NCBI GenBank assembly: GCA_016931155.1
Contig: JAFGFJ010000006.1
Location: forward strand, 314,896-378,895
Source: Candidatus Dojkabacteria bacterium
Lineage (GTDB): Bacteria; Patescibacteriota; Dojkabacteria; B142; JAFGFJ01
DNA length: 64,000 nt
Direction: 5' to 3'
Shown: positions 1,840-56,149 of the stretch, in pieces
Numbering within the stretch: position 1 is the stretch's first letter
Layout of the letters: each line of letters begins with the position of its first letter
The notes under the pieces: model-generated
Told to the model about the DNA's origin: nothing
Databases searched by the model: none
The model's input: only the letters and a program-made list of their open reading frames with translations
Made by a program: the position numbers and the translations under genes

Positions 1840-2931
1840 CTATTCTGTGTTGTTTTCTATGTTTGTAAGTTGACCACAAGCAGCCTCAACGTCCTCTCCC
1901 ATTGTTACTCTAATTGTGGCAGGAATACCTGCTTCAGTAAGTATCTTTGCAAAACTATGTATTCTATTTCTACTACTTCGGCGAAAACTCCTGAAAGAAT
2001 ATTTATCTGGCAGAAAGCGAGAACAATTAGTCTGTTTATTTACAGTTTTTATATCATGATAAATGGTAATGGGATTGTAAGGGATGAGGTTTATGTGGGC
2101 AAGTCTTTGCCCTTTCAAAAGTGCAACTAGTTCCTGAGCGTGTTCTCCCCTGTCGTTTACATCGTGTATCATGATGTATTCGTAGCTTATTCTTTTGTTT
2201 CGAAGATCCATGTACCAGGTTGTTGCTTTTATGAGCTTATCAATAGGAAAAAGCCTGGCAATGGGCATAATTTTTTCTCTGAGCTTCTGATTTGGAGCGT
2301 GCAGTGAAATGGCAAACCTTCCTTTGAAACCATCTTTGACCAGTTTCTTGAATTGAGGAATATATCCACAGGTTGAAATTATTATTCTTCTTTTACTAAG
2401 TCCAAGTTTTGCAGGATCTGTAATAATGTCCAGTGACTTTTGAACTTCAGACAGATTAAGTAGTGGCTCGCCCATTCCCATAAAGACAACATTAGTAACC
2501 TTTTGAGGTTTTTTACAACTGAGGAGAAAACGATTGAAATATAATATCTGATCGATAATTTCCTGTGCTGAAAGATTTCCACCGAAGCCCATTTTCCCGG
2601 TTGCACAAAATATACAGCCTACGGGGCATCCAACCATACAGCTTACACAGACGGTATTCCTTTTGTCTTTATGTCTTATGAGTACTGTTTCAATTTTCTT
2701 TTTATCGCTTCTTTCAAATAAGAGCTTTATTGTTTTCGAATTTTTGGATTCAAGTTTTTTTATCTCCCTTAATGTCGAAAAGGTTATTTCTTGAGATAAT
2801 TTATTTTTTATGTCTTTTGGAAGAGTAGTGATTTCCTCAAAACTTCTGATAGGTTTCTGATAAAAGGCTTCCTCAATTTGCTTGAGTCGAAACCCGGGAA
2901 GATTATATTTATTTATGAATTTTCGAAACAT
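1840..2931 (-). CDS. rlmN: Radical SAM 23S rRNA (adenine2503-C2)-methyltransferase RlmN/Cfr family
   Basis: CPVGCIFCATG radical-SAM cysteine motif, MGMGEPLLN, GIPATIRVTMGEDVEAACGQL C-terminal motif. Confidence 0.85.
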   Translation of the reverse strand: MFRKFINKYNLPGFRLKQIEEAFYQKPIRSFEEITTLPKDIKNKLSQEITFSTLREIKKLESKNSKTIKLLFERSDKKKIETVLIRHKDKRNTVCVSCMVGCPVGCIFCATGKMGFGGNLSAQEIIDQILYFNRFLLSCKKPQKVTNVVFMGMGEPLLNLSEVQKSLDIITDPAKLGLSKRRIIISTCGYIPQFKKLVKDGFKGRFAISLHAPNQKLREKIMPIARLFPIDKLIKATTWYMDLRNKRISYEYIMIHDVNDRGEHAQELVALLKGQRLAHINLIPYNPITIYHDIKTVNKQTNCSRFLPDKYSFRSFRRSSRNRIHSFAKILTEAGIPATIRVTMGEDVEAACGQLTNIENNTE

Positions 2932-3154
2932 AAAGGGATTATACCCTACATTATAAAGTGCAGACAGGGTAGGAGCTGATTTATGGATTTTTTTGGGACA
3001 GAAGATGAAGGTTATTTATTTGCTTCACACTTTATTGAAAATTTCCTACCACTCTGTTACTATTACCCAGCTTTTTTGAAGTAGGATGTACAATAACCTG
3101 TGAAGAGGGTTGTTGTTTTTTTGATCAAAAATTTAAATTATATTTATAAATTTA

Positions 3155-5302
3155 ATGGCAGGTACAGATTACACATCGGTAAAAGATAAAAATCTTTACA
3201 GGAATATTGGAATTATTGCTCATATTGATGCTGGGAAAACTACTACCACTGAGCGTATTCTCTTTTTTACGGGAAAGAAGCACAAACTTGGAGAAGTTCA
3301 CGAAGGAGCTGCGGAAATGGACTTTATGGACCAGGAAAAGGAAAGAGGAATAACTATCCAGTCTGCTGCTACTACTGCTTTCTGGGAAGTTGATAATACC
3401 AGATATAGGGTAAATATTATTGATACTCCCGGGCATGTTGATTTTACAGCTGAAGTTGAGAGGTCATTGAGGGTACTTGATGGAGCGGTTGTTGTATTCG
3501 ATGGGAAGGAGGGGGTTGAACCGCAGTCAAGTAAAGTGTGGCTTCAGGCGGAAAAATATTTTGTACCAAGGCTTTGCTATATAAATAAACTTGACGCAAC
3601 TGGTGGCGATTTTTTCAAAAGCCTGGAAAGTATTCAAAATGAACTCAACAAAAATGCATTTGCGGTTCAGATTCCTGTAGGTACTGAGTCAAACTTTAAT
3701 GGGATTATAGATCTTGTTGATATGAAGGCTCATATGTATAAGGATGAGCTTGGGAAAGAGATAGAAGTATCCGATATTCCGGATGATCTTAAGATAAAGG
3801 CTGAGGAATATAGAGAAAAAATGATTGAGAAAATTGCTGATGCGGATGATGTCATTGCTGAAAAGTATCTTGGCGGGGAGGAAATATCCCGTGAAGAAAT
3901 TGTTGCGGGTATTAGAAAAGGAACTGTCTCTGGTGTGATTTTTCCGGTTTTGGCAGGATCTTCGTACAAAAATAGAGGTATTCAGCTTATGCTTGATTGT
4001 GTTTGCAGGTATCTGCCGTCTCCCCTTGAAAAGATTCAGGTAATAAAAAACGAAGAGACTGGAGAGCAGACAAAATATATTGGAGAGGTAGTTGGGAAAA
4101 ATCCAAAGACTGATGCTGATGAACACAGGAAGGCATCAAATGATGAACCTTTTTCCGGACTTGTTTTTAAAATTGCAATGGATACTCATGTGGGCTCGCT
4201 GGCCTTTATAAGAGTATATTCAGGTAAGCTTCAGGCTGGAACGTATGTGTACAATTCATCTGTCGATAAGAAAGAAAGAGTGGCTAGAATTCTTTTGATG
4301 CATGCAAATCATAGAGAGGAAGCACCTGAGATAAGTGCTGGAGATATTGCGGCTCTTGTAGGGATTAAAGAATCCTATACTGGAAATACAATTTGTGATG
4401 AAAATAATCCTGTTGTTCTCGAGAGTATCAAGTTCTCTGATCCTGTTGTCTCGCTTGCGATTGAGCCAAAAACAAAATCAGATCAGGAGAAAATGGGTAC
4501 AGCTCTTAATAAGCTTTCGCAGGAGGATCCTACTTTTAAAATTTCGACAAATGAAGAAACGGGGCAGACAATTATTTCTGGGATGGGAGAACTACATCTG
4601 GAAGTAAAAGTGGATATTATGAGAAGGGACTACAATGTGGATGTTAATACAGGTAAACCGCAAGTAGCTTACAGAGAGACCGTAGAAGGAGAAATTGAAC
4701 ATAGAGAGCTTCTCAAAAAGCAGACAGGAGGTGCGGGACAATTTGCCGATCTCACTATCATTCTTTCTCCGAATGAGCGAGGGAAGGGGTATGAATTTAT
4801 TGATAAAATCAAGGGTGGAGCGATTCCAAGAGAATTTATTCCTTCAGTTGATAAAGGAATTCAACAGGCACTTTCTACAGGGGTAATCGGAGGATTTCCG
4901 GTAGTGGATGTGAAAGTTGAGCTGGTTGATGGATCCTACCACGAGGTTGACTCAAATACCGATACATTCAAAATTGCAGCGAACAGAGGTTTCAAGGAAG
5001 CAATGAAGAAGGCTTCTCCTATTCTACTTGAACCAATTATGAAGCTTGTAGTGAATACTCCGGATGAATTTGCAGGAGACATAACAGGAGCGGTTGCTTC
5101 AAAGAGAGGACAGATTAAGAAAATGGAATCAAAAGGTAATTACCAGGAAATCGAAGCAGAGGTTCCTCTTGGTAATATGTTTGGCTGGACGGGGGACATG
5201 AGGTCTATGACTAAAGGAAAAGCGAATAGTGTGATGGAATTTTCGCATTACCAGAAAGTACCTGAAAATCTTGTGGATCAACTACTCGGAAAGAGCGAGT
5301 AG
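3155..5302 (+). CDS. fusA: Translation elongation factor G
   Basis: AHIDAGKTTTTERIL G1 motif, DTPGHVDF, full-length 715 aa with EF-G domains III-V. Confidence 0.95.
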   Translation: MAGTDYTSVKDKNLYRNIGIIAHIDAGKTTTTERILFFTGKKHKLGEVHEGAAEMDFMDQEKERGITIQSAATTAFWEVDNTRYRVNIIDTPGHVDFTAEVERSLRVLDGAVVVFDGKEGVEPQSSKVWLQAEKYFVPRLCYINKLDATGGDFFKSLESIQNELNKNAFAVQIPVGTESNFNGIIDLVDMKAHMYKDELGKEIEVSDIPDDLKIKAEEYREKMIEKIADADDVIAEKYLGGEEISREEIVAGIRKGTVSGVIFPVLAGSSYKNRGIQLMLDCVCRYLPSPLEKIQVIKNEETGEQTKYIGEVVGKNPKTDADEHRKASNDEPFSGLVFKIAMDTHVGSLAFIRVYSGKLQAGTYVYNSSVDKKERVARILLMHANHREEAPEISAGDIAALVGIKESYTGNTICDENNPVVLESIKFSDPVVSLAIEPKTKSDQEKMGTALNKLSQEDPTFKISTNEETGQTIISGMGELHLEVKVDIMRRDYNVDVNTGKPQVAYRETVEGEIEHRELLKKQTGGAGQFADLTIILSPNERGKGYEFIDKIKGGAIPREFIPSVDKGIQQALSTGVIGGFPVVDVKVELVDGSYHEVDSNTDTFKIAANRGFKEAMKKASPILLEPIMKLVVNTPDEFAGDITGAVASKRGQIKKMESKGNYQEIEAEVPLGNMFGWTGDMRSMTKGKANSVMEFSHYQKVPENLVDQLLGKSE

Positions 5303-5765
5303 ACAAATTCCGGTAGGAGTTCCATTTGTCCATTATCAACTCCAAAGTTTCTCTTTATGGCTAAGTAACTTTATTGTCTGAGAGATTTCTATGGATAAAT
5401 GATCGCATTCATGATCTATCTTTATGGCAGCTAATTCCAATTGAAGCATTGATAAATACTTTTTTTATTACCGATTTCTTTTCTTACAAAATCTACCAGC
5501 GGTCAATGAAAGGGCTAATTGAATAATTGTTTTTACTGAAAAATTCAAATCCCATATCAAGCATGCTGGTGCAATACAAAGCAGTATTAATTCTTTGACT
5601 TATAAAGTCAAAGATATGATTTTACAGTATGGAGTGAAGAATAAGGAGAAATACTGGTCTGAAAATTTCTCGTAATAACTTGATTATTAGTCCAGGATTT
5701 GATATAAATTTGGATCGAGAACACAAATTCCTCGCGTGTTCTTTTTTAACTGCCTTTGACAGCAC

Positions 5766-7045: not shown

Positions 7046-7081
7046 GAAGTTGAGCTGGAAAAAACCAGCTCAACTTTTTTA
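7046..7081 (+). terminator. Rho-independent terminator/attenuator after tuf (12-bp stem aagttgagctgg / ccagctcaactt, loop A6, then T-run)
   Basis: Perfect 12-bp inverted repeat followed by tttttt, read directly; lies inside the apparent N-terminal extension of the rpsJ ORF, which argues the true rpsJ start is downstream. Confidence 0.65.
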
Positions 7082-7400: not shown

Positions 7401-7512
7401 CAAACTTTTTGAACTGACCTTGGTTAATACTGTTCTTTTCAGGATAAGTTACCAGGACTCTGAAACTTCAGGGATCTTGGGCTTCTCAAAAAGAAGCCTT
7501 TTTTAATAGAAA

Positions 7513-8082
7513 ATGAAAAAAACTTTAATTACAGAAAAAAAAGAGATGACGAGCCTATTCGATGGAGATGGGAAGTTTGTATCTGTTACTGTACTTGAGG
7601 TAGGGGATAATGTTGTTTTTGGGACAAGAATTGAAGAAAAGGATGGTTATAGTGCTTTTATTATTAAAGATGAGAAATCTGGATTGGTAAAAGAGGTGAG
7701 AGTGGAAAGTGATGAGGAAGTAAAGGATATGAAGGTGGGGGATAAATTGGAGATAGACTTTAGTGAGGGAGATACGGTTTCTGCAACGGGAGTAACAAAA
7801 GGAAAAGGTTTTCAAGGAGTAGTCAAAAGATGGGGATTTAAGGGTGGACCAAAAACTCATGGACAATCAGATAGACAAAGACATCCTGGCTCTATTGGAG
7901 GTGGGACTACGCCGGGAAGAGTTTATAAAGGGAAGAAAATGGCGGGAAGGATGGGTGCAGTTACAAGAACGATCAGAGGATTGAGGATTATAAAAATAGA
8001 TAAGGAGAACAATTTAATAGCGGTAAAAGGTGCGATACCTGGAGGTAAAGGCGGATTGGTTTTGCTTAAGTCGACCAAATAA
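7513..8082 (+). CDS. rplC: 50S ribosomal protein L3
   Basis: GKGFQGVVKRWGFKGGPKTHGQSDRQRHPGSIG signature. Confidence 0.95.
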   Translation: MKKTLITEKKEMTSLFDGDGKFVSVTVLEVGDNVVFGTRIEEKDGYSAFIIKDEKSGLVKEVRVESDEEVKDMKVGDKLEIDFSEGDTVSATGVTKGKGFQGVVKRWGFKGGPKTHGQSDRQRHPGSIGGGTTPGRVYKGKKMAGRMGAVTRTIRGLRIIKIDKENNLIAVKGAIPGGKGGLVLLKSTK

Positions 8083-8084
8083 CA

Positions 8085-8609
8085 ATGAAAGCTTTGAAAT
8101 TAGTGCCCTATTTGGTACTTGTTTCTCTCATATCAGTAGGAGTGTACTTACTGATAGGAATAACAAATCAGGAGAAATTGCAAAGTTATTCTGACTTTAT
8201 TGAAACAAGTAGTGGCAAAGTACTTGAAGGGATAAACAAACAGAGTGAACAGATAAACAGAATTGGAAATATTTCGGATATTGAAGAAGGAGTAATAACG
8301 GATAATGAGGATATTTCAAGTAAGTTTAAGACTTTACTTGAAGCAGAAAAAAAAGCCTGGCAGGAATTAAAAAAGCCTGAAGGGTCTAAGGAAACTCAGA
8401 AACAAATGGAAGAGTTTTTTAAGGGTGCAGAAGAAAGCAATAAGCAGTTTGATGAGGCAATGATGGAAATAAAAATACTGAAAAAAGAAGATGAGCTTCT
8501 AAGTACAATTAAGGGCTACAATGAGAAAGTAACAAAATTTGCAGAAACATACGAAGAGCTTATTGAAAACTTAAATAATTATATTGATGAAAGTAACTTT
8601 ATACGATAA
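8085..8609 (+). CDS. Hypothetical membrane-anchored coiled-coil protein inserted between rplC and rplD
   Basis: N-terminal hydrophobic helix (LVPYLVLVSLISVGVYLLIGI) followed by a K/E-rich predicted coiled coil; ATG 2 nt after the rplC stop and overlapping the rplD start by 26 nt. Confidence 0.55.
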   Translation: MKALKLVPYLVLVSLISVGVYLLIGITNQEKLQSYSDFIETSSGKVLEGINKQSEQINRIGNISDIEEGVITDNEDISSKFKTLLEAEKKAWQELKKPEGSKETQKQMEEFFKGAEESNKQFDEAMMEIKILKKEDELLSTIKGYNEKVTKFAETYEELIENLNNYIDESNFIR

Positions 8610-9402
8610 AACAGGAAAAAAGACTGAGAAAAAGATTGAGCTTGACTCTGCGATTTTTGGGGCAAAGGTTAATAAAAAACTATTAAGCCAGGCTGTCTAT
8701 ATATATCTTTCAAATCAAAGGACAGCCAATCCCCAGACTAAAGACAGGGGTGAAGTTAGTGGTGGAGGAAGAAAGCCATGGAAGCAGAAAGGGACGGGAA
8801 GAGCCAGACACGGTTCAACAAGAAGTCCGATCTGGAGAGGAGGAGGAGTTACTTTTGGTCCCACAAATCAAAAGAATTATAAAAAGACTATGCTTAAGAA
8901 AATGAAAAGAGCGGCAATTAGGTCAGCTTTTAGTTATCAGACTGAAGAGAAAAAAGTGTTGGTAATGGAAAAACCCGATTTCAAAGAAGGAGCACTTACA
9001 AAACAAGTCTTGAAAATTTTAAATAATTTGAGAATTGATAAGAAAGTGTTGTTTGTTCAGGGAGATATTGACCAAAACTTTGTTAAAGCAGTGAGTAATC
9101 TCAAAACTGTTTTGGTAAAACCGGTAAACGAACTTAACACTTATTCAGTATTAAATACACAATGGCTGATTTTTACAGATGAAAGTTTGGGAAAGGTTAG
9201 CGAGTTTTGGGGAGCAGAAAAAGGAAAAACTTTAAATACAGAGAAAGGGGAAGAGAAGAAGCTCAGCTCTGTTCAAAGAGATTTAGTAAAAAAGGAAACA
9301 AAAAGAGTCAAGGATGAGAGTGAGAAAAAGCCTTTGAAAAAGGTTGCAAAAAAATCGACTATAAAGAAAGTTAAAATAATAAAATCAAAAACAAAGAAAT
9401 AA
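8584..9402 (+). CDS. rplD: 50S ribosomal protein L4 with ~70-aa Lys-rich C-terminal extension
   Basis: GGGRKPWKQKGTGRARHGSTRSPIWRGGGVTFGP signature; 272 aa against ~200 typical. Confidence 0.93.
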   Translation: MMKVTLYDKTGKKTEKKIELDSAIFGAKVNKKLLSQAVYIYLSNQRTANPQTKDRGEVSGGGRKPWKQKGTGRARHGSTRSPIWRGGGVTFGPTNQKNYKKTMLKKMKRAAIRSAFSYQTEEKKVLVMEKPDFKEGALTKQVLKILNNLRIDKKVLFVQGDIDQNFVKAVSNLKTVLVKPVNELNTYSVLNTQWLIFTDESLGKVSEFWGAEKGKTLNTEKGEEKKLSSVQRDLVKKETKRVKDESEKKPLKKVAKKSTIKKVKIIKSKTKK

Positions 9403-17078: not shown

Positions 17079-18551
17079 ATGCTGGAAACACAAAAAAAAA
17101 GCTCAGGAATGCCTGCAAGTATTTTTAGTCGCACAGTAAGAAAAGTCTCAGGAGAGACTAAGAAGAGTGGCATTTTTACTAAATTCCAAAGGACGTTTGC
17201 AAATAAAGATATAAGGAATCGTTTCCTTTTCACTATGTTGATGGTTTTGGTATTCAGATTATTGTCTGCTGTTCCACTTCCAGGAATTGACCCTGCAGTT
17301 TTTAAAGAATTTTTTCAAGGTACTCCTTTCAGTAATATCTTTACCATAGTTACTGGAGGAAGGCTTGATAATCCGTCTATTGTAGCAATTGGGCTGGCTT
17401 CTTATATTAATGCCTCAATTATGATTCAACTGTTTACAACTGTTATTCCCTCTCTTGAGGAAATGTCAAAAGAAGGGGAAAGAGGAAAGCAAAAATTGAA
17501 TCAGATAACCAGAGTATTGACTGTTCCACTGACAGTGCTGCAGTCCGTAGTGATTTATACTATTTTGAAAAACAGTGCTGGTATTTCAAATCTCGTCGCG
17601 GAGTCATCGGTTTTGGATGTAGTTACTATGATTACGACACTGACTGCCGGGACGATGCTCCTGATGTGGATATCTGAGATTATTTCAGAAAGTGGGATCG
17701 GAAATGGCTCGTCAATAATAATTTCCGCTGGTGTTCTTGCAGTTATCCCGAGTTTTATTTCACAGGATTTCCAAAGTGTTGAACTCAATTTTAAATTTCT
17801 TTTAGAAGGAAAACTTGAAGTTCTATGGAGCTCAAATATGCTTTTGATCTATGCGATAATTGTGGGGCTTGTTGTTTTACTATTAGGTATAGTTTTTATG
17901 TCGGAGGCAACAAGAAAACTATCTATCCAGTATGCAAGAAGAGTAAGGGGTGGTGTGGCGGGATTTCAAAATACTTTTCTTCCGATTAAGCTTAACCAGG
18001 CAGGGGTGATGCCTGTAATATTTGCATCATCAATACTCATTCTGCCGCAGATACTTTCTCAGTTTGTGGTCAGTTCCTTTGAATCGGGTAAGTTTTATGA
18101 TATTGCCAATGCAATAGGAAATTCCTTTCTTTCAGACTATGGATCATTTGGATACAATTTAACCTACTTCTTTGCAATTATTGGGTTTACTTTCTTTTAT
18201 ACTTTTGTTGTTCTAAACCCGAATGATACAGCGGACAACCTGAAGAAAAGTGGAGGCTTCATACCTGGGATTAGACCTGGGACTTCAACTGCCAGTTATA
18301 TTACGAAAGTTATGATCAGATTGACTATTGTCGGGGGTATTTTCCTCGGGGCAATAGCTCTTGCTCCTTCTCTTATTAATCAATTTGCGACTAATCAGTT
18401 CCTTGGAGAAGCTGCAAATTATGGGAGATCGACTCTTTTTTCCGGAATTGGGGGTACCAGTCTTTTGATTTTGGTAGGAGTAATACTTGATACAAAACGA
18501 AAGATTGAATCTATGGCAGTTACACGTAGCTACGAGCATTACAAAGACTAA
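17079..18551 (+). CDS. secY: Preprotein translocase subunit SecY
   Basis: 10-TM profile; RLLSAVPLPGID, GTMLLMWISEIISESGIGNGSSIII motifs. Confidence 0.95.
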   Translation: MLETQKKSSGMPASIFSRTVRKVSGETKKSGIFTKFQRTFANKDIRNRFLFTMLMVLVFRLLSAVPLPGIDPAVFKEFFQGTPFSNIFTIVTGGRLDNPSIVAIGLASYINASIMIQLFTTVIPSLEEMSKEGERGKQKLNQITRVLTVPLTVLQSVVIYTILKNSAGISNLVAESSVLDVVTMITTLTAGTMLLMWISEIISESGIGNGSSIIISAGVLAVIPSFISQDFQSVELNFKFLLEGKLEVLWSSNMLLIYAIIVGLVVLLLGIVFMSEATRKLSIQYARRVRGGVAGFQNTFLPIKLNQAGVMPVIFASSILILPQILSQFVVSSFESGKFYDIANAIGNSFLSDYGSFGYNLTYFFAIIGFTFFYTFVVLNPNDTADNLKKSGGFIPGIRPGTSTASYITKVMIRLTIVGGIFLGAIALAPSLINQFATNQFLGEAANYGRSTLFSGIGGTSLLILVGVILDTKRKIESMAVTRSYEHYKD

Positions 18552-34229: not shown

Positions 34230-34234
34230 TTTCG

Positions 34235-34627
34235 GTCTAGTCAGAACGGTCGCTAAGCGTGAGCTTAGAGGAAAGTCCGAACTCCTCTTGGCACAATAGT
34301 CAGGACAAGGTACCTTGGAGACAAGGCAGGGAGTGATCTCTGGGATTAGAGCAACAGAAAGTAAGGAGCCTGCGAATTGCAGGCGATCTTGAAAGGGTGC
34401 CTCCGGGTTTTTCTGGGGGGCGTACATGAAATTTCATGTATGACGTGTAAGAGACCACCGGTCACGATAGTAATATCGAGATGCTGGTAATCCCTATCGG
34501 GAGCAAGATCAAAGTGTAGATCGCAAAGTGTTTGTTCTTTTGATTAATCAGAACAAATACTGCTAGAGAAATGACCGTCATTCTGGTGTTGCCAGAAAGA
34601 ACAGAATTCGGCTTATTGACTAGACCA
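34235..34627 (+). ncRNA. rnpB: RNase P RNA, bacterial type A-like
   Basis: Universal motifs read in sequence: AGAGGAAAGUCCGAACUCC (P4 5' strand), GUAAGAGACCACC, ACAGAAUUCGGCUUAUUGACUAGACC (P4 3' strand plus P1); the 5' GGUCUAGUCAG pairs with the 3' UUGACUAGACC to form P1; no ORF of significance. Confidence 0.88.
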
Positions 34628-34734
34628 TTTTTTCAACCACTTCAGGAGTATTTCCATTTGGGTGCATAATACTTCCTGTATAGAAACCATTATTTCTTGA
34701 AAATTTCAATTTACAGTGGGAACACATAGATACA

Positions 34735-54019: not shown

Positions 54020-54094
54020 TTGGAGCGGGCAACGGGAATCGAACCCGTATCATCAGTTTGGAAAACTGACATAATAACCTTTATACGATGCCCG
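54020..54094 (-). tRNA. tRNA-Gly (anticodon UCC) with encoded CCA
   Basis: Reverse complement folds as a cloverleaf: acceptor GCGGGCA/UGCCCGC, T-arm ACGGG-UUCGAUU-CCCGU, anticodon stem UCAGU/ACUGA with loop UUUCCAA, discriminator U then CCA. Confidence 0.75.
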
Positions 54095-54240
54095 CACAAA
54101 ACACGCAATTGTAGCAGATCAGTCTCCTTTTTGTGAAGCAATGGACCAGGAATTGTGTTAATGGTCGGGTACGGCTGAAACTTTATCGTGTCCTGTTTTC
54201 TGCTAGTTTTCATCTATTGCAATATTGGGATTACTTAGTA

Positions 54241-54320
54241 TGAGTAGCTATCTCCGAAGCACTTCAAGTCTCTGTGCATGAGTAGCTCTTCCCGCAGCAC
54301 TTCAAATTCCTGTCGTAAGT
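54241..54320. repeat. Imperfect tandem duplication (~38 nt x2, ~80% identity) spanning the stop codon and 3' end of the 424-aa ORF
   Basis: tgagtagctatctccgaagcacttcaagtctctgtgca followed by tgagtagctcttcccgcagcacttcaaattcctgtcgt. Confidence 0.7.
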
Positions 54321-55538
54321 AGACGGGTCACCGTTCTTTACGTATTTTAAGACCTTTCCGCAGATGTCACATCTCACCGGGTCGGGTCTGTCAGGGGTTG
54401 GTTGAGGTTCAAACCCCGGATTCAATATCGAGTTTACTCTTCCGAATGTGCTGAACTTTTCCGATATACCGCAGGCGCTCATCACATAACCTTCTTGTCT
54501 CATAAGTCTGGCTTGAGCATATCTATCCATTTTTTGAAAATCTGAGAAACCTCCATCTTGATCGTAATTAATCCCTGTTTCTAGCTTCATTACATCATGT
54601 ATATATTTTCTAAATCCGAACTGCAGGACTGCCATTGTTTCATTGATGAAGGAAAGTTCTTTAGAAATATTTTCCCCTTTATTCAATTTTGCGGCCGTCG
54701 CCGTAATCAATGTTCTAAATTCCTCCCTGACTCTTTCCCAAACAAACGTCTTTGCATAAGCCTCAATTAATCTAATTTTCATTTCTTCGAGACCTTTTGT
54801 TCTTTGTTCTATAAAATCGGTTATGATTCTGAGTTTGTTGTCATCAAAGAAGCCTGATGATGCCATTATGCTTAAATCTGAAAGATTATTGCTGTCTGTA
54901 TTAATTGCCAATTCATTCAGTAGTTCCTCATAATCAAGAGTCGAAGTTGCGGGTAGCCATTTTTGTATAACTTTCTCGGTACCATTTTCATTTATAAATA
55001 AAAAGATGGTGTCGTTCCCCAGATAACCTCTTTTTTTTGCTTCTTCGGTAAGTGGCGGGCTTGGGCTGAATTCTACAAAATTTCTTTTATCTCCCATCTG
55101 TCTTGCTCTTCTGAGTTTTTCATAATTGCTCAGATTTATTGTGTTTCTTAAGATTTCAAATTCAGGAATTTGCCCGCTCGCATTATTTATTGCTTCTCTA
55201 TAGATTTCGTCAAGTGTTCTGTTTCCTGTTGCGAGCTTCCACGGTAAATTGCTCTTATCCCAAGGGAGGCTGTATTCATATATTGCAGTAGTTTCTGCGA
55301 TGGGATGCTCAACGATCTGGGTGTATATGTCGGTAAGGCTTTCTGTCAATGCAATGTTCAACAATGCCTCCCTTTCCTCTCCTCCAGCAGATTGGATAGC
55401 TTTTAGAGCCTGAAGTACATAGTTTATTGAGTTTGAGTATCTGTTTGAATACTGCGCCCTGATAGAATCCATACTTAAATCTGCTTTATTGATCGCAAAT
55501 CTCGACGGTTGTATTTCCTGTATGGCTGTTTCGCTCAT
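54264..55538 (-). CDS. Hypothetical protein with C-terminal Cys cluster (CDICGK...CCGKSYSC)
   Basis: Long ORF with coding-like composition; no recognisable family. Confidence 0.4.
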   Translation of the reverse strand: MSETAIQEIQPSRFAINKADLSMDSIRAQYSNRYSNSINYVLQALKAIQSAGGEEREALLNIALTESLTDIYTQIVEHPIAETTAIYEYSLPWDKSNLPWKLATGNRTLDEIYREAINNASGQIPEFEILRNTINLSNYEKLRRARQMGDKRNFVEFSPSPPLTEEAKKRGYLGNDTIFLFINENGTEKVIQKWLPATSTLDYEELLNELAINTDSNNLSDLSIMASSGFFDDNKLRIITDFIEQRTKGLEEMKIRLIEAYAKTFVWERVREEFRTLITATAAKLNKGENISKELSFINETMAVLQFGFRKYIHDVMKLETGINYDQDGGFSDFQKMDRYAQARLMRQEGYVMSACGISEKFSTFGRVNSILNPGFEPQPTPDRPDPVRCDICGKVLKYVKNGDPSTYDRNLKCCGKSYSCTET

Positions 55539-56149
55539 TTCATTTCAGAAACGAGCAGTGTTGAAGAATTAATTTTCATGGCTTTCTGCTCGGAAAGATA
55601 AAATAATCTTGGCTGGTTTTCTGGCTTTTCCAGTGATGGAATTACAGTTGCGGCACAGCAGCGGTATTTCACCGCTTTTCCCATTTAATCCCGAAAAGAG
55701 AACCTGAAATATACTAGAGTAAAAATTATAATTTTGCAAGAAGTGTAGGTCTGATGTATTTGATGTACAACTTCAAGACCTATGTAGCAACTGAGACTCT
55801 ACGGGCTGTACAGGTTCATGAACATATGCAACAGCCATAGTAGAATACGTTGATGTTTCAAATTATTAATGATTCAAACAAAACGGTTGTTGTATAACGA
55901 GTTTAATCTTTAATATGTTTCATCACACGATAGAGAAGGCGAGTAAAATCAGCTTATTTTTTTCATTAACTGTAGAGACTCTTACAGAGAGCCAAGGATA
56001 AACTAGATGCTTGTTATGTATTATATGTAAGACAAGCAAACTCTCAATGAAGGAAGTAGTAGAGACCACGGCTAAGTTTTGCTCATCATTATTGTTGATC
56101 TTTTGCCAAATGAATTGTACTCTGTATTAGTCAGATTCCTGCCCTAATT

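Follow-up and report, generated by a model that had tools for sequence, protein, structure and literature searches.

Bacterial ribosomal-protein operons are known to carry genes that are not ribosomal: secY, adk, map and infA in the spc operon and rpoA in the alpha operon are near-universal, have known functions, and gain from their embedding a high expression linked to ribosome synthesis. Here we describe a gene of this general kind in the S10 operon, a 174-codon open reading frame (the ORF) between rplC (uL3) and rplD (uL4). It lies at positions 8085-8609 of a 64,000-nucleotide stretch of DNA, the whole of which we call the window, from a metagenome-assembled genome of Candidatus Dojkabacteria (WS6, Candidate Phyla Radiation (CPR)); the contig that carries it is 559,650 bp long. 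Like secY, adk, map, infA and rpoA, the ORF is co-directional with its neighbours, tightly packed, without a promoter or terminator of its own and fixed in position, and secY, too, encodes a membrane protein. Unlike those genes, the ORF is limited to one subclade of Dojkabacteria, and it occupies the uL3-uL4 junction. In kind, then, it is an accessory gene embedded in a ribosomal-protein cluster; what is new is the family, its site of insertion and its narrow distribution. The product is identical to the NCBI entry 'hypothetical protein JW796_03070 [Candidatus Dojkabacteria bacterium]', and we found no description in the literature of the ORF or of any insertion between rplC and rplD.

The S10 operon is also the site of a well-known regulatory RNA. 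In E. coli, the S10 leader mediates both transcription attenuation and translational repression by uL4. As described below, the operon in the window contains a putative structured element in a different place, ahead of rplC, which may bear on the expression of the ORF.

A protein-coding gene at the uL3-uL4 junction

The local gene order is fusA, tuf, rpsJ, rplC, ORF, rplD, rplW, rplB, rpsS, rplV, rpsC, rplP, onward. As a reference for the junction we used 80 control loci from unrelated phyla, taken from a uL4 contig scan that was dominated by the universal KPWKQKGT motif and comprising no close relatives. The gap between the L3 and L4 genes is at most 204 nt in 79 of these 80 loci, so that the premise of an earlier, sequence-only reading of this DNA, namely that the adjacency is normally tight, is borne out. 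That reading had also placed a non-ribosomal gene exactly between rplC and rplD inside the S10 operon, starting 2 nt after the rplC stop codon, and both points hold: the TAA at 8080-8082 is followed by CA and then by the ATG of the ORF. Its figure of 26 nt for the overlap with rplD has to be corrected to 23 nt (8587-8609), as it presumed a TTG start at 8584; we take ATG 8587 as the start of rplD because the L4 proteins of the relatives all start with MKV.(L/R/K)YD. The reading frame of the ORF differs from those of rplC and rplD, and every member of the family described below has its own ATG and stop codon.

With log-odds of codon usage derived from 21 further genes of the window, we observed an in-frame score of +0.35 bit/codon for the ORF, against -0.96 and -1.12 in the other two frames; rplC, rplD and rplW score 0.34-0.47 bit/codon. 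The coding-potential check that had been proposed for the ORF thus gives a score like those of the neighbouring ribosomal genes, with the off-frames at about -1. The GC content at third codon positions (GC3) is 0.29, compared with 0.28-0.35 in the neighbours, and the order GC1 > GC3 > GC2 is that of the neighbouring genes. Overall GC is lower in the ORF (0.32) than in rplC (0.39) or rplD (0.35), because codon position 2, with a GC content of 0.24, follows the amino-acid composition. The product is K/E-rich, as had been noted (E 14.9%, K 12.1%).

The statement that the gene carries no ribosomal-protein signature also stands, as no ribosomal model of Pfam or NCBIfam matches the product at E <= 1 and the PDB sequences contain no ribosomal-protein match. 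No family of either profile collection reaches its threshold, the best E-values being 0.014-0.018, far short of the cut-offs. We set aside the weak matches to Taxilin and TT21 in Pfam, to ZorA_4 in NCBIfam (14 bits against a cut-off of 500) and to designed bundles and Rop among the PDB sequences, all far below cut-offs, as reflections of the helical, K/E-rich composition. The matches to PADLOC anti-phage defence profiles were likewise rejected (the best, PDC-M32A, has E 4.5e-4 and 17 bits over 63 residues; the rest are JetC-type coiled-coil matches).

Homologues and selection

A word-indexed protein search with the ORF alone returned only the ORF itself. An exhaustive HMMER scan of 1.84 billion cluster representatives yielded four true homologues (P0122-P0125, E 7e-32 to 1e-6), a profile search added P0127, and a further copy was found on the contig of the closest relative, L082. 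Scanning metagenomes with five sequences gave one more locus, L092, whose 80-residue fragment is identical to P0122. Two other candidates, P0126 (1199 aa, E 8.6e-4, matched in five stretches) and a match in L037 (E 0.003), were taken as coiled-coil-composition matches.

From several billion proteins came no more than seven distinct members. They are 173-177 aa long and 25-38% identical to the query, and their alignment has 12 invariant columns (M1, K2, G19, Y35, S42, Q53, I57, N58, N119, L132, Y145 and N146) and no gaps other than one or two of a single residue. For the closest pair, L082/L088, pN is 0.23 and pS 0.68, which gives a dN/dS of ~0.15, compared with 0.06 for uL4 of the same pair. 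The family evolves fast relative to its neighbour: its dN is ~4 times that of uL4, and it is 38% identical where uL4 is 64-76% identical. Absence or frameshift of the ORF in close relatives, or a lack of purifying selection, had been named as what would speak against it; in its closest relatives the ORF is present, intact and under purifying selection, and the homology search and the comparison of junctions together show seven diverged members that keep the frame at the same place. We conclude that the ORF at 8085-8609 is a genuine gene, coding for a protein of a small family not named before.

Distribution and phylogeny

The ORF directly follows rplC in the window, in L082, L085, L086, L087, L088 and L092 and on the contig of P0127, and it directly precedes rplD in all members whose contig reaches that far. 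In seven loci the spacers range from -4 to +16 nt on the rplC side and from -23 to +3 nt on the rplD side, a 4-nt ATGA overlap being the commonest form of junction. Four Dojkabacteria-like relatives (L084, L089, L090 and L091) have rplC and rplD abutting and no ORF, and the exhaustive search found no copy of the family elsewhere.

A single-gene tree of uL4 was poorly resolved and misplaced L085. We therefore used a neighbour-joining tree of the concatenated uL4-uL23-uL2-uS19-uS3 proteins (865 columns), which includes the three carriers with long contigs; in it the window, L082 and L085 are monophyletic in 200/200 bootstraps. We find the family in a single subclade of Candidatus Dojkabacteria only, and the suggestion that the gene may be lineage-specific was right. 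Identity of uL4 among the carriers ranges up to 76% and falls to ~41-47% for the complete proteins and to 53-59% for their first 175 residues. Since the same junction is occupied across one clade with such diverged uL4 proteins, the comparison points to one ancient insertion between rplC and rplD that has been vertically inherited since.

The rplC-rplD slot is also filled in L083 (Dojkabacteria-like, GCA_015657915.1), which has two ORFs there, of 105 aa at 2245-2562 (+) and of 153 aa at 2543-3004 (+). They resemble the family in slot, strand, tight packing and N-terminal hydrophobic helices. The second also has a helical, acidic tail and a motif, E-N-S-S-N-K-I-I-E-L-I-N, reminiscent of S-S-x-x-I-S-x-K-I-N in the family. 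No relationship links the two, and if they are related to the family at all, then only very distantly (hhalign, in a single comparison: probability 5.9%, E 0.0064; hmmsearch, over 5657 ORFs: E 0.24); L083 itself lies outside the ORF-carrying clade (1% bootstrap for the grouping). Genes may have entered the junction on more than one occasion, or the insert of L083 may have changed too far to be recognised.

The one exception among the control loci, L072 from Parcubacteria, has an L3-L4 gap of 685 nt and a different arrangement. Its uL3 (2701-3480, +), 259 aa in total, carries a K/E-rich C-terminal extension. Between its rplC and rplD genes there is also an ORF of 78 aa on the other strand (3657-3893, -), whose product has a lipoprotein-type signal peptide (…LLISC SS…).

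Predicted structure of the product

Only residues ~6-27 of the product form a hydrophobic segment (Kyte-Doolittle mean over 19 residues up to 2.45), so that hydropathy prediction agrees with the N-terminal transmembrane (TM) anchor that had been proposed. A conserved tail of five residues, M-K-x-x-K, precedes the TM helix of ~22 residues, and K2 and G19 are invariant. AlphaFold2, run on a six-sequence alignment, gave a model with a mean predicted local distance difference test score (pLDDT) of 87.4 and a predicted template modelling score (pTM) of 0.77. In this model the TM helix runs unbroken into the first helix of a bundle, and the protein ends at residue 174, right after the fourth helix (helix boundaries in Table 1). 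The product is accordingly predicted to be a single-pass membrane protein with an acidic antiparallel four-helix bundle of ~145 residues; the coiled coil of the sequence-only reading is replaced in the model by this bundle, whose helices do not form an extended coiled coil. In all members the soluble part is acidic, with a net charge of -6 to -20 and a pI of 4.2-4.9, and free of Cys. With a pI of 4.7 and a net charge of -10, the product encoded in the window lacks the basic RNA-binding composition of ribosomal proteins.

Comparison of the model with known structures gave as best matches the sensor domain of the kinase Adeh_2942 (4k0d, 13.9), the ligand-binding domain of Tsr (2d4u, 13.6) and that of Tar (1lih, 13.2), all at 2.5-2.8 Å. 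Identity to these three is only 6-7%, and de novo designed bundles score about as well. Like the sensor domains of the 4HB_MCP type (Tar/Tsr, Adeh_2942), the predicted bundle is of the four-helix up-down kind and continuous with an N-terminal TM helix. Unlike them, the product has no Pfam 4HB_MCP match at E <= 1, and it has neither the second TM helix of the receptors nor a HAMP, kinase or MCP module. As far as the model goes, the likeness to periplasmic four-helix-bundle receptors is one of shape only. LemA (PF04011) is another protein of comparable build, with ~180-200 aa, an N-terminal membrane anchor and a helical-bundle domain; the product is similar to it in size and architecture, and Pfam gives no PF04011 match at E <= 1.

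Expression and a candidate structured leader ahead of rplC

We found no promoter-like site and no convincing terminator inside 8083-8609. The ribosomal genes of the operon have no Shine-Dalgarno sequence, and all of them, including the ORF, share an A/U-rich start context; the ORF begins with ATGAAA, as do rplC and rplD. Given the minimal or negative spacers, the lack of a promoter or terminator of its own and the common start context, co-transcription and translational coupling of the ORF with uL3 and uL4 is the only economical reading of the gene geometry. The co-translation with the ribosomal proteins that had been suggested for the ORF is in agreement with this placement.

More widely, in ~20 starts of translation genes inspected between 5830 and 17100 of the window we saw no GGAGG-like Shine-Dalgarno sequence and A/U-rich contexts throughout, which suggests that initiation in the source organism may be independent of Shine-Dalgarno pairing.

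The spacer between rpsJ and rplC, of 112 nt, appears to hold a structured leader in three parts: an outer helix around a conserved internal loop, AAUAC...A-GUU, with a variable hairpin (~7420-7456); a second hairpin; and, at 7479-7504, an intrinsic-terminator-like hairpin (GGGCUUCU/AGAAGCCU) followed by U6, which was detected by a terminator scan. Independent folds of the spacers of seven relatives have the same layout, all seven with the terminator stem and a T-run. The leader is found at 3228-3341 in L085, 2079-2176 in L087, 300-391 in L092 and 2283-2375 in L090; L083 (1480-1571) and L084 (2265-2376) have variant forms, in which the terminator stem differs in sequence and keeps the same form. 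The AAUAC...A-GUU motif is restricted to the rpsJ-rplC spacer, being present in 5/92 loci, and it occurs once in the window against an expectation of 0.16.

A covariance model built from three sequences, with the structure specified by hand, picks out the homologous site in L085 (E 2e-08) and in L090 (E 0.12). Of the cells that form pairs in the leader, 99% hold standard pairs, compared with 40-57% when the partners are slid. Three pairs show a compensatory change and 14/500 shuffles reach the covariation score, in an alignment that was fitted to the model and has six rows, one of them probably spurious. RNAalifold found no structure in a plain MAFFT alignment of the rplC leaders, in which the variable hairpins are misaligned, and Rfam has no match for the leader.

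Like the E. coli S10 leader, this would be a structured 5' element that ends in a terminator hairpin ahead of S10-operon genes. Unlike it, the element lies between rpsJ and rplC, where the E. coli leader is upstream of rpsJ, and the two have no sequence or Rfam similarity. On the evidence of folding and comparison the leader looks like a candidate ribosomal-protein attenuator, apparently undescribed, that would gate rplC, the ORF, rplD and later genes; with a terminator hairpin in this position, the downstream ribosomal proteins and the ORF would depend on read-through. It is not specific to the insertion, since L090 has the leader without the ORF. Because the ORF is probably carried on the S10-operon mRNA, downstream of the leader and its terminator, its output would be tied to ribosome synthesis, and the product would be abundant and coupled to growth rate.

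Interpretation and alternatives

We regard it as highly probable, at above 0.9, that the ORF encodes an acidic four-helix-bundle protein with a membrane anchor, and that the gene is particular to this lineage, fixed in place between rplC and rplD and co-expressed with both. For its function we tentatively favour an abundant N-in/C-out protein that acts at the outer face, in the envelope or in binding a partner, and is not a component of the ribosome; taken as a whole, we would put this proposal at a little short of even odds. We orient the protein N-in/C-out because the M-K-x-x-K tail is conserved and carries a charge of +2 (+1 in P0125) where the C-side flank has a net charge of -2 to +1, and because the long hydrophobic helix passes directly into the bundle and lacks a signal-peptidase motif. 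The bundle would then stand, with low confidence, on the outer face of the cytoplasmic membrane, as do the periplasmic bundles of chemoreceptors and sensor kinases. The conserved polar cluster of Q53, N58, N119, Y145 and N146 would be a candidate binding site, and to judge from the predicted helix boundaries these residues should lie in the membrane-distal half. Placement in the operon may, as for secY in the spc operon, set the expression level and need not be a sign of ribosome binding. The fast evolution and the acidity of the product fit an exposed, non-RNA-binding protein.

Several points weigh against this interpretation. The family consists of seven sequences, all from metagenomes, with conservation statistics that are thin, and the synonymous sites are saturated in every pair but L082/L088, from which the dN/dS is taken. 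The AlphaFold2 model derives from only six sequences, and idealised helical proteins tend to be predicted with high confidence. We stress that the four-helix bundle, as modelled, is a generic fold whose likenesses would say little about function or location, because Foldseek gave no match in the PDB at E <= 0.001 and the designed bundles score as well. Finally, Lys and Arg residues within 15 residues of the helix are tied or in slight C-side excess in most members, and on these counts an N-out/C-in topology has to be reckoned with.

It is to this reversed topology that a rival appeals which we think unlikely: that the protein is a cytoplasm-facing ribosome tether or 50S assembly factor, whose acidic bundle binds a basic element, for example the Lys-rich tail of uL4, and holds large subunits or assembly intermediates at the membrane, in a ratio to uL3 and uL4 that the gene placement fixes. 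The gene does stand exactly between those of two early-assembly 50S proteins, tightly coupled to both in every member, the counts of Lys and Arg on either side of the helix are compatible with C-in, and N-terminally anchored cytoplasmic helical proteins, such as EzrA, exist. The three complete uL4 proteins of the clade (261-271 aa) moreover have long Lys-rich tails that an acidic bundle could bind; however, L089 has a 262-aa uL4 with such a tail, with rplC and rplD abutting and no ORF. The M-K-x-x-K tail is also the wrong kind of segment to cross a membrane, the protein is acidic and fast-evolving, unlike typical ribosome-bound factors, and Pfam, NCBIfam and the PDB provide no link, in sequence or in specific fold, to any ribosome-associated family. 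More doubtful than this tether is a novel ribosome-associated membrane factor specific to the lineage and produced in proportion to uL3 and uL4, with a cytoplasmic bundle that docks large subunits or the uL4 tail at the membrane, or one whose own membrane insertion tethers the S10-operon polysome. We rate still lower an accessory subunit of the SecYEG/YidC export or insertion machinery. Such a subunit would owe its place in a ribosomal operon to the same habit as secY, which is found in the spc operon (in the window, presumably the 490-aa ORF at 17079-18551, which we identify by its position after the uL15-position ORF), and secE, which is next to the rplK operon, and the product is indeed a small single-pass membrane protein within a ribosomal-protein operon. 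Neither Pfam nor NCBIfam, however, relates it to SecE, SecG, YajC or another Sec/YidC-associated family, and a translocon subunit would be expected to be more broadly distributed than one small subclade, with four related Dojkabacteria lacking the ORF.

The remaining alternatives concern the origin and reality of the gene. The sequence-only reading had called it foreign, and the low overall GC and the lack of homologues outside a narrow group might be expected of a recently acquired foreign or mobile cassette. This we consider very improbable: the GC deficit is confined to codon position 2, with GC3 and codon score like those of the neighbours; only short chance repeats flank the ORF, and no integrase or transposase was found at its borders; the scan of 1.84 billion representatives contains no donor lineage; and the gene has descended vertically at the same junction in one clade. 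A spurious or functionless ORF, or a decaying remnant, would be in line with the absence of a known domain and the low-complexity-like, K/E-rich sequence, but has hardly any credibility left for a frame whose length is kept at 25-38% identity with almost no indels and 12 invariant columns, with pN far under pS, a native codon score and a confident fold prediction.

Significance

The uL3-uL4 junction is among the most stable of bacterial gene adjacencies, and here a non-ribosomal gene has been kept inside it despite uL4 identities of ~41-59%. Retention through such deep divergence implies an advantage to the cell in producing this membrane protein along with its ribosomes. Next to nothing is known of the envelopes of uncultured CPR bacteria or of how they interact with their hosts, and the gene marks a membrane protein that is probably very abundant. 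Such a protein might be used to sort cells, as an antigen or a tag, and it may take part in contact with a host or, with its bundle on the cytoplasmic side, link ribosome and membrane. Were it ribosome-associated, these ultra-small bacteria would have a membrane-localised step of ribosome production or a resident ribosome receptor. As a marker, an ORF at rplC-rplD is a clean synapomorphy for the Dojkabacteria subclade. It may be, too, that an attenuator RNA not described before controls the S10 operon from a site ahead of rplC; the leader with its terminator would then add a new case of ribosomal-protein autoregulation, of which we know none described in this phylum. The immediate impact is modest, given a tiny family and a generic fold.

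Other features of the locus

The features of the locus are collected in Table 1.

Table 1. Features around the ORF, in window coordinates
Feature	Position	Strand	Evidence or remarks
ORF under study, 174 aa, unnamed family	8085..8609	+	ATG start, TAA stop
rplC (uL3), 189 aa	7513..8082	+	Pfam Ribosomal_L3 PF00297 1.5e-20; TIGR03625 1.7e-57
rplD (uL4), 271 aa	8587..9402	+	Pfam Ribosomal_L4 PF00573 4.6e-62, residues 17-206; TIGR03953 6.9e-63
rpsJ (uS10), 99 aa	7101..7400	+	Pfam Ribosomal_S10 9.5e-35; 99 aa in relatives too
Putative structured leader ahead of rplC	7416..7504	+	Terminator scan, folds of relatives' spacers, covariance model
Predicted single N-terminal TM helix, codons 6-27	8100..8165	+	Hydropathy, conservation, AlphaFold2 helix 7-58
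Predicted acidic, cysteine-free four-helix bundle, codons 28-170	8166..8594	+	AlphaFold2 helices 7-58, 68-94, 102-130, 135-170

A strong terminator-like hairpin with a 13-bp stem and a T-run lies at 7046-7077 (+), between the stop codon of tuf (7039) and rpsJ. The true start of rpsJ is ATG 7101 and not TTG 7050, as given in a mechanical list of ORFs, because the hairpin overlaps the TTG-extended frame. Its presence suggests that tuf is transcribed separately from the S10 operon or is joined to it by read-through.

The uL3 protein is short in the window (189 aa) and in L092 (190 aa), compared with 203-206 aa in other Dojkabacteria relatives, and that of the window matches the bacterial L3 model in two stretches. 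The uL4 of the window has a Lys-rich C-terminal extension of ~65 residues past the Pfam domain (9205-9399, +), and similarly long uL4 proteins occur in L082, L085 and L089. The NCBIfam model '50S_L4_sunset' (L4, sunset domain variant) scores 177.6 bits on the uL4 of the window, under its cut-off of 385. Four uL4 homologues of 283-301 aa from Dojkabacteria-like genomes (P0007, P0021, P0032 and P0121) have a precomputed match to PF03118, the RNA polymerase alpha C-terminal domain, besides Ribosomal_L4, which would be an unusual fusion for a ribosomal protein. In L091 no gene is called at 5187-5645, a gap of 458 nt between rpsS and rpsC where rplV (uL22) is expected; this may be a missed call or a frameshift.

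Elsewhere, the window contains no rRNA, one tRNA (54024-54095, -) and a bacterial RNase P class A RNA (34233-34631, +). A cobalamin riboswitch (60 bits; 55594-55722, -) lies upstream of a 424-aa ORF (54264-55538, -), and a B12 riboswitch in a genome so reduced is possibly noteworthy.

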